Shown: piece by piece, positions 33,870 through 43,364 of the stretch | Layout of the letters: every line of letters starts with the position of its first letter | Numbering within the stretch: position 1 is the stretch's first letter | Assembly: GCA_965238275.1 (NCBI GenBank) | Contig: OZ250186.1 | Span: 1,248,001 to 1,312,000 of the forward strand | DNA: 64,000 nucleotides | Direction of reading: 5' to 3' | DNA from: Nitrosopumilus sp. | Lineage (GTDB): Archaea > Thermoproteota > Nitrososphaeria > Nitrososphaerales > Nitrosopumilaceae | Program-made: the position numbers and the translations under genes | Notes under the pieces: generated by a model | Database searches by the model: none | What the model saw: only the letters and a program-made list of their open reading frames with translations | What the model was told of the DNA's origin: nothing

Positions 33870-34963
33870 CGCGCAAAAGTCTTTGAACAAATGCCCTAGC
33901 CAACCGCAAAGTTTCTAGATCAGACCCATTTCAGGGAATACATGGACAACACCAAACTGGAAGAACTCGAAAAGGCGTACAAAAAGGAAAAGGACCACAA
34001 GGTCCGAACCAGAATGGTTGTGGTGCGCATGGTGCGCGTGCGCAACATGACCGTGGAGGATACTGCCGACATCCAAGGACGTAGTCCAAACTGGGTCCGT
34101 AACTAGTTGCGCCGCTTCGACGACGGGGGCCTGCAAGGCCTCCGTGATCTTCCACGATGCGGACGGCCCAGAAAGATTTCACGAGACGTCATGGACAGAA
34201 TAATCGTAAGGGCATCCTGCTGTAGAATCACGCCCTCGGAGTTGCAGCAGAAGATACGCAAGGACGCGGGCGTAAAACTTCACATCACGTACGTCAGGAA
34301 AATCATGCACCAGCACAACCTGTCCCAAAGGCACCGCGAAAGGTCCACGTCAATAGGGCCAACAAGAAGGCCGTGCAGAACTGGAAATATCGCTTCAACA
34401 AGCGCGTTTCACGCCTAGAAAAGGATGGTTTCACCGTATTAATGGAGGACGAGGCAATTTTCATACACGACGTGATAGTCGGCCGCAAATACTGGTCCCC
34501 GGTGGGCCGTTCCATAAGCGTGCCGTATACTGGCAGCCACAAGAGGATCGCAGCGTACGGCTCAATTACCCGGGACGGCAGGCAGTTCTTCCGGACGTAT
34601 GAGAAATTCGACGGGCCCACGTTTGTCAAATACCTCAAGGATCTGCACAGGCACTTTGGCAAGGTGGCAGTGACCGCAGACAGGGCACCGCAGCACCGCT
34701 CAAAACTGGTAAAGGAATTTCTGCGAAATAACAAGGACGTCAAGATGATCTATTTGCCAAAGGGCTCGCCGTATCTCAACGCGATGGAAGAGTGCTGGCA
34801 CCAGGGAAAGCGCGTCCTGCTTGTCTCTGAATATTACAGGACATTCCAAGACATGCACCGGGCAGTTTCGCTGTATTATCGAACTGTCAGATTCAAGCTT
34901 GACCTTCTCAAATTTACCAGCCGAAAATATGAGATGCTGTGCAAGGACTTTTGATCGTCAGTA
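33864..34963 (+). mobile_element. IS630-family insertion sequence
   Basis: TA duplication at 33862-33863 and 34964-34965. 26-bp imperfect TIR TACTGACG..CAAAAGTC.TTG.ACA. Removal restores cgcgacataggcagg. Confidence 0.95.
33942..34954 (+). pseudogene. IS630 transposase with an in-frame TAG (34104-34106) and a frameshift at about 34325
   Basis: HTH segment ...SPNWVRN*LRRF; DDE motifs MEDEA, ADRAPQH and SPYLNAMEECW. Confidence 0.9.
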
Positions 34964-40686: not shown

Positions 40687-41020
40687 GGATTGTAATATCC
40701 GGCATATCCAATAAATCTTTTCTCGTACGTAGTTTGTTGCATAATCGTGCCTAGATCGTGTTTTATTGGTGAGAATTTACGCACGAGATTGGAGTTATGC
40801 AACAAACTACTCGTACGCGTCATTTAATTAATTTAATCCGTATCAAATCCATTGATGCTTATTTCATGATTTTTTAGGCAATAAATCAGGGACTGGATTT
40901 TAGCTTCAAGGCACCGTCCAGTTACCGTTTTTATCCACTGCTGTACTGTGCCATACTGTGCCATGCTATAGATCCAATGCAGAATGTGCCTTTGCTGACG
41001 ATCAAAAGACTCCATGTGTT

Positions 41021-41180
41021 GCCGTTATGGCGGTGATCATGGCATTTACCCTGTTGGACCTGAGAGTCGGCACGAACTTGCCACTTGTGATGGCGTTCAA
41101 AAGGGTGACTCAAGGTATGCGGATGGTCAAATGCCGCTTTGACGGTGAATGGGAGTTTTCCGCTGGTCGGGCCCGACATG
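41021..41180 (+). ncRNA. Putative bridge/seek RNA of the IS110 element (ends approximate)
   Basis: Nested stems GGCATTTACC/GGTCAAATGCC, GAGTC/GACTC and GCCA/TGGC. Internal-loop segments 41070-41078 and 41097-41103 match the insertion site. Confidence 0.72.
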
Positions 41181-41194
41181 CTGCAAAGGAGGTG

Positions 41195-41765
41195 ATGACA
41201 CGTATTACATTGGAATGGACGTTCACAAAAAAATGCGTTTCAACCATCAAGGGCAAAACCAACAAGATGCTAAGGCAGGCCGAATCTGGCAACAATGTCC
41301 GGGGAATAACCGGATTCGTCAAGATGATCCGCAAGGAAGGATGCGTGCCGGCCACGGCCGTCTGCGAATCCACCGCCAACTACTGGATAGCCGTGCACGA
41401 TATTCTCGAGGATGCAGGTATCAACGCCCTGCTGGCCCACCCGCACAACACGAGGATCATAACCGAAACCGTCTACAAAGACGACAAGGCGGACTCGGCA
41501 AGGCTGGCAGACCTGTGCAGGCTGGGCATGATCCCCGAATCGTTCGTGGCCGACAAGCCCGCGCGGGACATGCGCGAACTGACCCGCACCCGCCTGGGCA
41601 TGAAGATGCACGCCGCCGGCCCCGAGAACCGCATCCACGCGATCCTGGCCAAATACCCGGCACGGGCAGCCCAAGGGAGGACTGTTTACGGGACCGGGAC
41701 TCGAGTGGTTGCAGGCAGTGCCCCTGAGGGAGGTTGGCCGCATGGCGCCGGATCAGGCGCATTGC
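41195..41765 (+). pseudogene. IS110 DEDD recombinase, N-terminal RuvC-like domain only
   Basis: YYIGMDVHK, VCESTANYW, KDDKADSARLA and RELTRTR, with frameshifts near the start and at the A7 run (41227-41233). The C-terminal Tnp domain is absent. Confidence 0.88.
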
Positions 41766-42038
41766 CAACACACAACATCAACGGGTTTGGATGCCCGTAA
41801 CACATGGGGATTCGTGCACAGCGCCTCATATTTTCGGCTGGTAAATTTGAGAAGGTCAAGCTTGAACCGGGCGGTTCGATAATACAACGAAACGGCCCGG
41901 TGCATGTCTTGGAATGTCTTATAGTATTCTGAAACCAGCAGGATGCGCTTTCCCTTATGCTTTTGGCTATGGGTCTCGAGGATTACACAGAGCCCCCGAT
42001 CGCGTAACTTAAGTAATGCTTAGAATTTATCCAAAAAT

Positions 42039-43364
42039 ATGAAAGCGACGGCTTCTGTGATGTTGGCAGCAGTACTCTTGTTTTCTGTCGTTCCACCATA
42101 CAATGCCAGCGCCCAAGAAGATTCTGTAAGGATTGATGGGGCAGGTGCATCGTTTGCATTCCCGCTGATGGATTTATGGGGGGTAGAATATGCCAAGATA
42201 CACCCAGACGTCCAGCTGAACTACCAGTCAATCGGCAGCGGCGGCGGCATCAAGCAACACATAGAAAAGGCGATAAACTTTGCAGCATCTGACGCACCGC
42301 TCCGGGAATCCGAGTACGAACATGCGCCTGGAACTATCACCATTCCCGGAATGATCGGCGCCATATCCATGGTGTACAACATCCCGGGCGTGGATTCTGG
42401 AATTAAGATCACATCCGAGGCACTGTGCCAGATGCACTTGGGAAATATCGAATCTTGGAACGATCCCCTGATTGTCGATGCCAACCCCGATCTGGAAATA
42501 CCCGATCAGGATATCGTCATAGTGCACAGGTCCGACGGCTCGGGCACGACGTTTGCCTTTACCAGTTATCTTGCCAAGGTGTGTCCGGAATGGAACGAGA
42601 GAGTGGGCGCAGGCAAGAGCGTCCCATGGCCGGTAGGACTCGGGGCAGCAGGCAACGGGGGCGTCGCAGGAGTCGTATCCACAACACCTAGCTCAATAGG
42701 ATATGTCACGCTTGCCTATGCATTCCAGAACGATCTTACCGTCGCGGCGATAGAGAACGGCGACGGCACAAACTTTGTGCTGCCGACATTGGAGAGCGCG
42801 TCTGATGCATCCCGGGGAACCGCATGTAGCCATACCTCTGGAGATCTGCTAGTCGAGTGCTTGGAGGACATGTCTGATCCATGGAATATAGTCCACGACC
42901 ACTTTTCACACGCAGGCCTGCCTCACGCATCAGACAGCTGGACAGGCGTTGACCTGCTGGCAGCATCTGGAGAAAACTCGTACCCGATCACCAGCTTCTC
43001 ATACATCCTGCTGCATCCCGATCTGAAGGGTTCAGTGGACGACTATGACCATGCCGTGGAGATTGTCAATCTCATCGCTTGGATAATCACAGACGGACAG
43101 GAGTACAACGATGATCTGCTTTATGTGCCAATCCCTGCACCCGTAGTCAATCTCGGGCTGGAAGGACTGGCGTCTATTACCTATGACGGGCAGCCTGTCT
43201 TTATGATTTCAGACGATCATGAAGACGATCATGACGATAAAATTCCTGCATGGGTGCAGAGCGTGTTCAAATTTTATGGGGACGGGTTGATATCCGAAGA
43301 CGAACTGATCAACGCAATCAAGTTTCTGGTAGAACAGGGCGTCATCAAACTGGACCCGCACTAA
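42039..43364 (+). CDS. pstS: Phosphate ABC transporter substrate-binding protein with C-terminal helical domain
   Basis: Motifs GAGASF, YQSIGSGGG, FAASDAPL and HRSDGSGTT; signal peptide. Confidence 0.95.
   Translation: MKATASVMLAAVLLFSVVPPYNASAQEDSVRIDGAGASFAFPLMDLWGVEYAKIHPDVQLNYQSIGSGGGIKQHIEKAINFAASDAPLRESEYEHAPGTITIPGMIGAISMVYNIPGVDSGIKITSEALCQMHLGNIESWNDPLIVDANPDLEIPDQDIVIVHRSDGSGTTFAFTSYLAKVCPEWNERVGAGKSVPWPVGLGAAGNGGVAGVVSTTPSSIGYVTLAYAFQNDLTVAAIENGDGTNFVLPTLESASDASRGTACSHTSGDLLVECLEDMSDPWNIVHDHFSHAGLPHASDSWTGVDLLAASGENSYPITSFSYILLHPDLKGSVDDYDHAVEIVNLIAWIITDGQEYNDDLLYVPIPAPVVNLGLEGLASITYDGQPVFMISDDHEDDHDDKIPAWVQSVFKFYGDGLISEDELINAIKFLVEQGVIKLDPH

Follow-up and report, generated by a model that had tools for sequence, protein, structure and literature searches.

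A stretch of 64,000 nucleotides (nt) from Nitrosopumilus sp. (assembly GCA_965238275.1, contig OZ250186.1, positions 1,248,001 to 1,312,000 of the forward strand; the window) contains at 41009-41808 an element, W. With a probability of about 0.85 we regard W as the fossil of an RNA-guided DEDD-recombinase insertion sequence of the IS110 family in the wide sense, programmed against the terminal inverted repeats (TIRs) of IS630-type transposons. W itself is dead. Its relatives in the same genome carry guides that each fit their own TIR variant, on IS630 or on TnpB-carrying elements, and W is therefore taken to have been guided by a bridge or seek RNA. The window's genome (2.2 Mb) is referred to as G000, and relatives by other G numbers. 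As the sequence-only reading of this DNA had supposed, the host is archaeal: the Rfam models for archaeal small-subunit (1469.9 bits) and large-subunit rRNA won their clans at the rRNA locus of G000.

The features of the window are, in window positions:

40995-41008 (+): outer part of the IS630-type TIR, CTGACGATCAAAAG, as in the uninterrupted paralogue; intact IS630 TIRs are of the same type
41009-41808 (+): IS110/IS1111-type element W, delimited by genome DNA search and comparison with copy A
41011-41043 (+): predicted 5' hairpin of the left end (alignment columns 6-41, helices 1-2), with compensatory change at 10 of 11 pairs
41012-41020 (+): left arm of the 9-base-pair (bp) subterminal inverted repeat, CCATGTGTT, read from the sequence
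41064-41111 (+): predicted target-binding module (helices 3-4), with base stem GAGUCG/UGACUC and inner hairpin at 41079-41095
41070-41078 (+): predicted 5' target guide GCACGAACT, the reverse complement of core and right flank (AG-TTCGTGC), with 7/7 non-core matches
41097-41103 (+): predicted 3' target guide TCAAAAG, assigned by identity to the left flank plus core AG
41119-41163 (+): predicted donor-binding module (helices 5-6), with base stem GCGGA/UCCGC and inner hairpin at 41132-41147
41188-41202 (+): ribosome-binding-like box GGAGGTGA and start codon position, from sequence and orthologue comparison
41203-41747 (+): remnant of the N-terminal DEDD domain of the recombinase (PF01548); the C-terminal domain is deleted
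41750-41808 (+): right end of W, 59 nt retained, ending ...GTAACACATGGG, from copy comparison
41799-41807 (+): right arm of the 9-bp subterminal inverted repeat, AACACATGG, read from the sequence
41809-41810 (+): right-hand core copy, GA (AG in the siblings), from sibling comparison
41810-41959 (-): IS630-type TIR, inner part (TTCGTGCACAG...), which overlaps the final 50 codons of a truncated gene for an IS630 transposase, from tblastn and protein comparison

Target guides and flanking sequences

For the comparison of guides with insertion sites, the left flank, the left end and the two strands of the first predicted RNA loop were read from 26 element copies, yielding 23 unique pairs, and the pairings of guides and flanks were shuffled 20000 times as a control. 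The 3' guide matched the left flank at positions -8 to -1 in 4, 20, 19, 20, 21, 22, 23 and 23 of the 23 pairs, and was exact at all five non-core bases in 16 of them. The total of 106/138 matches compares with 42.5 +/- 5.9 after shuffling, which reached the observed value in 0/20000 trials; with one row per distinct guide (19 rows), the result was 89/114 against 35.8 +/- 5.3. Since position -8 is at chance (4/23), the 3' guide comprises 7 nt. Lesser misfits were found in G117a1 (3/5, the guide word being displaced by 3 nt in the flank), in fragment E (4/5) and in G152b (4/5).

The 5' guide was compared, as its reverse complement, with the right flank in the 17 copies for which a right end was found; D, E, F, G, both G117a copies, G213 and G335b were dropped for want of a recognisable right end, and B, G117b2 and G117b3 as duplicates. 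Non-core matches numbered 70/119, against 34.4 +/- 5.5 with shuffled pairings (0/20000), with 15, 15, 11, 13, 12, 11, 11, 8 and 4 of 17 at positions +1 to +9, according to which the guide consists of the core and about six bases; W matches at 7/7 and copy A at 6/7 positions. The core AG is present at the left junction in 23/23 pairs and at the right junction in 15/17, the right copy in W being GA. The covariation of the two loop segments with the two flanks, which the sequence-only reading had named as a check of its proposal, was thus found, no shuffle reaching either total. In the predicted pairing of the first module, the 5' strand would bind core and right flank on the sense strand (the CT core and about 6 nt), and the 3' strand would bind left flank and core on the antisense strand (5 nt and AG).

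One copy in a relative (L056, G202:C3) was found inserted in DNA that is the same as a portion of the first RNA module of the element itself (...GAACTATTCTTACCCCGCATGAGGGTGACCGGCAG, directly before the insertion), so that a guide word in the RNA gene of another copy may have served as its target.

Predicted RNA structure

To collect orthologues, 401 genomes of the class were searched at the protein level; 66 gave a match at E <= 1e-20, and further copies were added. The left ends of 20 elements from 13 archaeal genomes were aligned (alignment A1), a locus from the unpublished genome G282 being left out. RNAalifold predicted a 5' hairpin and two modules, each of stem, internal loop and hairpin, comprising 33 pairs, 18 of them with compensatory change; in W both modules lie in the upstream non-coding region. 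The first module consists of a base stem (columns 62-67/161-166), a 9-nt 5' strand, an inner hairpin and a 10-nt 3' strand, represented in W by GAGTC at 41064-41068, GCCA-CTTGTGA-TGGC at 41080-41094 and GACTC at 41107-41111. In its two helices 97.5-100% of cells are paired, with compensatory changes at 5 pairs and with invariant G.U pairs. The second module has an invariant base stem, GCGGA/UCCGC, an 8-nt 5' strand, a covarying inner hairpin and an 11-nt 3' strand, the loop strands in W including AUGGUC (41123-41128) on the 5' side and AUGGGAG (41149-41155) on the 3' side.

As a control, paired cells were counted with the partners slid against each other and in 500 shuffles. Across A1, 93.3% of cells were paired (32-47% with partners slid), 59 cells showed double changes (3-11 slid), and the covariation score was 0.362 (at most 0.113 slid). 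None of the 500 shuffles matched the observed paired share, double changes (by pairs or by cells) or covariation score; the count of further pair types was matched by 6/500. A structured RNA upstream of the gene, as proposed from the letters of the window, is therefore borne out by the fold and by the pair counts. It is assigned to the sense strand because the invariant G.U pairs (67/161, 77/150 and 190/213) would be C-A mismatches on the other strand. We presume that the RNA was made.

At the 3' side of the modules, the start position (window 41200-41202) is occupied by ATG in the G012 orthologue, and by ACG in W, A, C and the copies from G280. An in-frame AUG lies further upstream, within the second RNA module (MGVFRWSGP...), in a frame that is open in several orthologues.

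The element and its insertion site

Counting the 2-nt core copy, W is 802 bp long, internally deleted and frameshifted, with both ends kept. It begins at 41009 with ACTCCATGTG, directly after GATCAAAAG (41000-41008), and ends with ...AACACATGGG at 41808, followed by GA and, from 41811, by TTCGTGCACA. The terminal extensions beyond the subterminal repeats are ACG (3 nt) on the left and G (1 nt) plus the 2-nt core on the right. W 1-739 corresponds to positions 1-738 of copy A and W 742-800 to A 1553-1611, so that 814 bp (A 739-1552) are absent; the recombinase frame is broken by this deletion, by a gap of 2 nt at 41230 and by one additional base at 41659, and the copy is dead as the sequence-only reading had it. 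The same reading had assigned the element to the IS110 family, in agreement with the match of PF01548 (DEDD_Tnp_IS110) to W at 41234-41746 (+) (E = 5.5e-11, 42.9 bits, cut-off 29) and with those of PF01548 (4.8e-19) and PF02371/Transposase_20 (2.4e-28) to copy A. Direct reading reproduced its coordinates for stem, guides, hairpin and junctions. Its claim of a core base missing at the right junction had to be revised: the siblings read CATGGG-AG-TTCGTGC and W reads CATGGG-GA-TTCGTGC, and as both junctions are equally long, the core was altered from AG to GA and not deleted.

The outer 14 bp of the TIR lie left of the insertion, with the left target half TCAAA and the core AG at 41002-41008, and a truncated IS630 copy lies to the right. 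The translation of 41810-41959 (-) is identical at 37/50 positions to residues 304-353 of a 354-residue DDE_3/HTH transposase of IS630 type elsewhere in G000 (E = 3e-24). An uninterrupted paralogue of the target, TATACTGACGATCAAAAGTTCGTGCACAGTG, was found at G000:1873001, and the empty site as reconstructed is thereby confirmed; the W target is also matched by a solo end, TATACTGACGATCAAAAGTTCGTGCACAG, and an intact IS630 copy (L017) has ends of the same kind, TATAGTGGCGATCAAAAGTTCTTGCAAA and, as reverse complement, TATAGTGACGCGCAAAAGTTTTGACAAA. In IS630 copies the repeat holds the last transposase codons and the stop codon, and the insertion point therefore lies within both the TIR and the end of the transposase gene.

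The uninterrupted word AAAGTTYGTGCA occurs 33 times in G000, mostly as inverted pairs about 1.5 kb apart with TA before them, and empty sites fitting the guide types of A, W and C/D number 22, 1 and 4, respectively. That the 1.5-kb host elements might be plain IS630 copies was considered and rejected, as they encode TnpB (PF07282, PF01385). One such unit (L016; G000:1779808-1781325, L016 109-1626), about 1.5 kb long with 27-nt inverted ends TATAGTGAAAAGCGAAAGTTCGTGCAA and TATAGCGGCGAGCGAAAGTTCGTGCAA and TA before them, encodes a TnpB of 503 residues and no IS630 transposase; about two dozen such genes were found by tblastn, and TnpB units with IS630-type ends far outnumber intact IS630 copies in G000. 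TnpB genes within symmetrical ends of IS630 type have been described (PMC10691335, available part of the text). The IS630 end postulated from the window alone is correct for W, and needs extending for most siblings, whose TIRs are alike in type but belong to elements that carry TnpB.

A further IS630-like gene, in two frames and 55-69% identical to the L017 transposase (tblastn), lies at 33942-34951 (+) of the window.

Copies in the genome

The DNA search of G000 gave 15 matches, which resolve into four long copies (W, 802 bp; A, 1611 bp; B, 1290 bp; C, 1703 bp), four left-end fragments (D, E, F and G) and one solitary right end. Two of the long copies are located, by the same search, at:

G000:2148253-2149863: copy A
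G000:827315-828604: copy B

Each of the eight left ends (8/8) abuts the outer part of a TIR-like sequence, in constant orientation to the repeat. On the right, where four flanks are known, the sequence goes on with TTCGTGCA or TTTGTGCA, after which comes a TnpB gene in A, B and C and the IS630 remnant in W. The 3' guide is TCAAAAG in W, GCGAAAG in A, B and E, and GCAAAAG in C, D, F and G; it is identical to the element's own left flank in W, A, B, C and D, with one mismatch in E and two each in F and G.

The search for intact copies in G000, as suggested earlier, returned a recombinase frame intact in 0/4 long copies, A and B sharing a 2-nt gap and C carrying an insertion and a frameshift. PF02371, whose domain is deleted from W, matches A, B and C, all frameshifted, and its scan of G000 added only two further IS110-type genes, both of another lineage, P2 (see below). 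No intact recombinase of the W lineage is left in G000. The right flanks of A and B are near-identical, and their left flanks differ outside the TIR. As they share a frameshift at two loci, either a broken copy moved in trans or its TnpB host element carried it along when duplicated.

Copy A has non-coding regions of about 210 nt upstream and about 350 nt downstream of the gene. The downstream region (copy A nt 1261-1611; L002 628-978, minus strand; also present in the orthologues L020, L021, L023 and L024) opens right after the stop codon with the conserved G+C-rich words GGGGCGTTTCGCCGCCCC ... GGGGCGGCTCAACGCCCC; it is missing in a short-ended sublineage (G275, G239, G303) and deleted in W. 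A second guide RNA was sought there in copy A, where no target-like 7-mers were found, the only two such words outside the first module both lying within the coding region. Rfam 15 models gave chance-level matches to copy A, downstream region included (best E 3.4, far below gathering scores).

Predicted donor guides and proposed mechanism

Left-end nt 2-7 are matched, as reverse complement, by the 5' strand of the second module taken with the final base of the stem. Over 12 distinct rows, from which duplicates and the irregular G335b were dropped, 61/72 positions matched, against 44.7 +/- 3.1 with shuffled pairings (0/20000), the match being exact in G012, G117a, G270 and G152a. The 3' strand, AAUGGGAG, contains AUGGGAG, equal to the right end ATGGG plus the core AG, in 20/20 rows of A1, and may act as the guide for right end and core.

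From the fit of the guides to both target and element ends, we propose that an excised circle, with the predicted junction ...CACATGGG-AG-ACGCCATG..., would be matched to the target and recombined at the AG/CT core. The RNA of W would have had as its programmed target the inner box conserved in IS630-type TIRs, GATCAAA-AG-TTCGTGC, and guide variants of the W, A or C kind would direct insertion to GATCAAAAGTTCGTGC, GCGAAAGTTCGTGC and so on. W would have inserted in the sole orientation that the core allows, splitting the outer 14 bp of the TIR from the rest, and the split TIR would presumably lose its function. The guides of the siblings are re-written to other TIR variants, and W later lost 814 bp and gained its frameshifts.

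Opposing evidence and alternative explanations

Several observations weigh against an RNA-guided element aimed at TIRs. The RNA, of about 110-130 nt and encoded upstream of the recombinase gene, is a prediction known from sequence alone. Rfam 15, searched with E up to 10 over window positions 40700-42100, gave no match. The single-sequence fold of W is no better than that of shuffled sequences (z-score -0.60), and the support for the structure therefore comes from comparison. The two target guides of W can pair with each other, as the sequence-only reading had cautioned for GAAC/GTTC; this applies to W alone, and orthologues whose targets are not palindromic do not conserve it. The 3' guide fits poorly in G335b (2/5), G012, G213 and fragment F (3/5 each), and the 5' guide in G012 (0/7 in register, fitting with a 2-nt bulge), G280c (1/7) and G152b (2/7). 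The 5' donor strand stops short of the core, unlike in IS621 as described. The 3' donor strand never varies, and its assignment as a guide thus lacks covariation; lineage P2 keeps a related motif, GAAUGGGG, even though its right end, ...ACATAGA, does not match it, so that the motif may bind protein instead. With all four long copies broken, activity of the W lineage in G000 is historical at best. Finally, the solitary right-end fragment (G000:1754009-1754069, -) ends with ...CACATGGG followed by AGTTAACAG, a flank that is not TIR-like.

It appears unlikely that W is not only a fossil but a short element resembling a miniature inverted-repeat transposable element (MITE), still mobilised in trans by a recombinase made elsewhere. 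W has the whole of its left end, the two RNA modules and, on the right, 59 nt of end sequence, and the frameshift common to A and B would also agree with movement in trans, or with duplication along with the host. However, none of the three copies with a C-terminal domain (A, B, C) has an unbroken recombinase frame, the only intact IS110-type gene, that of P2, has different ends, the core TG and guides of its own, and the right core of W is altered to GA. Short contigs from four DNA runs of four studies, which by themselves say nothing on mobility, bridge the left junction of W in 4/4 runs (contigs 40780-41059/60 or 40762-41060) and the right junction in two (X4 record 21, 41142-41851, which also spans the deletion joint; X1 record 6, 41634-41851). 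No joint skipping W is reported in these contigs, so that W junctions are present in all four runs and an empty W site in none, a weak argument as it stands on contigs only. Loose contig ends at 41815 derive from another locus and not from an empty W site, because the uninterrupted TIR has a different outside flank.

In all four runs contig depth rises at 40722-40815, about 200 bp left of the insertion, where an inverted repeat, CGTACGTAGTTTGTTGCATAA ... TTATGCAACAAACTACTCGTACG, is located; on account of this depth it is probably another small repeat or MITE.

We give very little credence to an explanation in which protein-DNA contacts let the recombinase recognise the TIR, translation of the recombinase is controlled by the upstream structure acting as a leader, and the flank-like words are by-products. 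The structure does lie directly upstream of the GGAGGTGA box and the start codon, with an in-frame AUG inside its second module, and the target is quasi-palindromic, as protein sites often are. Against this, across 13 genomes the loop strands vary in step with unrelated flanks and the stems stay paired, three guide variants within one genome each fit their own TIR variant, and the family is documented as RNA-guided (available parts of PMC11208160 and PMC11187229). Least probable of all is that the functional RNA comes from the other strand and is antisense to the recombinase: in W the minus strand gives the better folding z-score (-2.06, against -0.60 for plus), but the three invariant G.U pairs and other G.U variants would become C-A mismatches, and only on the sense strand is the core at the 3' ends of both target guides, as in IS621 (PMC11208160, available part).

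Relation to known systems

The lineage of W was filed under the IS110 family in the wide (ISfinder) sense, nearest to atypical IS1111-like forms. The intact G012 orthologue, a single gene for 357 residues, was matched by NF033542, 'IS110 family RNA-guided transposase' (8.1e-74, 248.8 bits, cut-off 140); in the relative G117, which has intact identical copies, there are at least 7 matches. In a plasmid tblastn search, with identities of 23-36% along most of the query, the labels were for the greater part the generic 'IS110 family transposase', and a few named an element (IS5708, ISEc45, ISShdy1, ISBth13). With its 9-bp repeat, the guide order of IS1111, an RNA upstream of the gene and, in copy A, long non-coding regions on both sides, the lineage mixes the traits of the two groups. 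The published systems are compared below as described in the available parts of the cited texts.

With IS621 of the IS110 group (Durrant et al. 2024, PMC11208160), the W lineage shares a left-end RNA gene that precedes the recombinase, two internal loops of which the first serves the target and the second, in the W lineage by prediction, the donor, and a CT/AG core lying within the guides at their 3' ends, each loop reading both strands in a staggered manner. The sides are exchanged relative to IS621 (PMC11208160), the 5' strand in W pairing with the sense strand of the right flank and the 3' strand with that antisense to the left flank; when read on the strand antisense to the recombinase, all four predicted W guides obey the IS621 rules with a CT core. 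The subterminal repeats of the IS110 group are 2-3 bp long (PMC11208160), those of W 9 bp.

The reversed guide order, already remarked on from the window alone, equals the order published for IS1111-type seekRNAs, in which the complement of the top strand is 5' of that of the bottom strand, the reverse applying to ISEc21 of IS110 type (Siddiquee et al. 2024, PMC11187229). With the IS1111-type elements ISEc11, ISKpn4 and ISPa11, W has in common a DEDD transposase and subterminal inverted repeats, and with the seekRNA elements of this type the order of strand complements, matches that overlap at the insertion point, and natural reprogramming among relatives (PMC11187229). The repeats of the IS1111 group measure 7-17 bp (PMC11208160), usually 11-13 bp (PMC11187229); at 9 bp, those of W are within the former range and below the latter. 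The terminal extensions are 7 (or 6) and 3 nt in IS1111-type elements, and 3 and 1 nt plus the 2-nt core in the W lineage (PMC11187229). In IS1111-type elements the RNA is usually downstream of tnp, whereas it is upstream in the W lineage; exceptions are ISMtsp17, where the non-coding region is upstream, and ISHvo10 and ISAcp5, in which the gene has a long non-coding region on either side (PMC11187229). ISEc21 resembles W as an RNA-guided insertion sequence with a natural target inside another insertion sequence family, but this target is a conserved coding stretch of IS3-family transposase genes and not a TIR, and the guide order is opposite to that of W (PMC11187229).

As for other elements that exploit transposon ends, the W lineage differs from IS4321/IS5075 in that these are bacterial with hosts of Tn3/Tn21 type, and W is archaeal with hosts of IS630 type (DDE_3) and their TnpB-carrying derivatives. 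IS4321/IS5075 are said, after Partridge and Hall 2003, to belong to the IS1111 family, to have subterminal repeats and to use the terminal inverted repeats of the Tn21 family as insertion sites.

Archaeal recombinases of the IS110 family as such have been counted, with 662 in 2,835 genomes (bioRxiv 10.1101/2024.06.21.599552, available part). Among the papers listed by a full-text literature search, as far as titles and the beginnings of abstracts tell, no IS110-type elements aimed at IS630 repeats are described; the supplements of PMC11187229 and PMC11208160 may show the arrangement. The mechanism is of a known kind, and the archaeal lineage and the target class, IS630-type TIRs, are new examples of it.

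A second lineage

The second IS110-type lineage, P2, is represented by an intact gene for 371 residues (PF01548, PF02371; G000:1923354-1924897, L070). Its left end is AATACATGATAACCC and its right end ...GGGTTAACATAGA, with the core TG on both sides. In its upstream region, ATTACGCA reads as the reverse complement of the TG core followed by the right flank CGTAAT, and GTTGGTG is identical to the left flank. The resulting target, GTTGGTG-CGTAAT, is the TIR of an insertion sequence of about 1.17 kb with a DDE_Tnp_1 transposase, a copy of which is at G000:387080-388242 (L069). A left-end fragment of P2 type at G000:1974617 (+), with the guides AATTGCA and GTTCGTG, sits directly after TATAGTGAAAAGTGAAAGTTCGTG. 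As this fragment uses the repeat of IS630/TnpB type that the W lineage uses, 7 nt further in, the two lineages have converged on one repeat.

Taken jointly, the two lineages allow a wider reading that we put forward tentatively and hold to be rather less probable than its negation: both would be specialised on the TIRs of other transposons, as transposons of transposons whose guides follow the TIR variants. The W lineage, with the core AG/CT, would be aimed at IS630-type TIRs, including those around about 24 TnpB-carrying elements, and P2, with the core TG, would have its intact copy in the TIR of a DDE_Tnp_1 insertion sequence and one fragment in an IS630-type TIR. The W lineage would, in addition, be an intermediate of the IS110 and IS1111 forms, combining an upstream RNA with the guide order and repeats of IS1111.

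Implications

RNA-guided recombination, so far worked out in bacterial elements, is extended by the W lineage to a well-sampled archaeal lineage, in which natural reprogramming of the guides is visible both within one genome and across 13 genomes. The TIRs of IS630 type, including those that frame TnpB genes, join the short list of ends that serve IS110-family elements as safe havens. The natural series of guides and targets (a 3' guide of 7 nt and a 5' guide of roughly 8 nt), together with the intact orthologues in G012 and G117, offers candidates for compact archaeal recombinases, and the mixture of IS110- and IS1111-group traits bears on how the RNA gene moved between the element's ends. 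If the joint reading of the W and P2 lineages is true, an RNA-guided layer immobilises the host elements and may curb the expansion of IS630 and TnpB elements.

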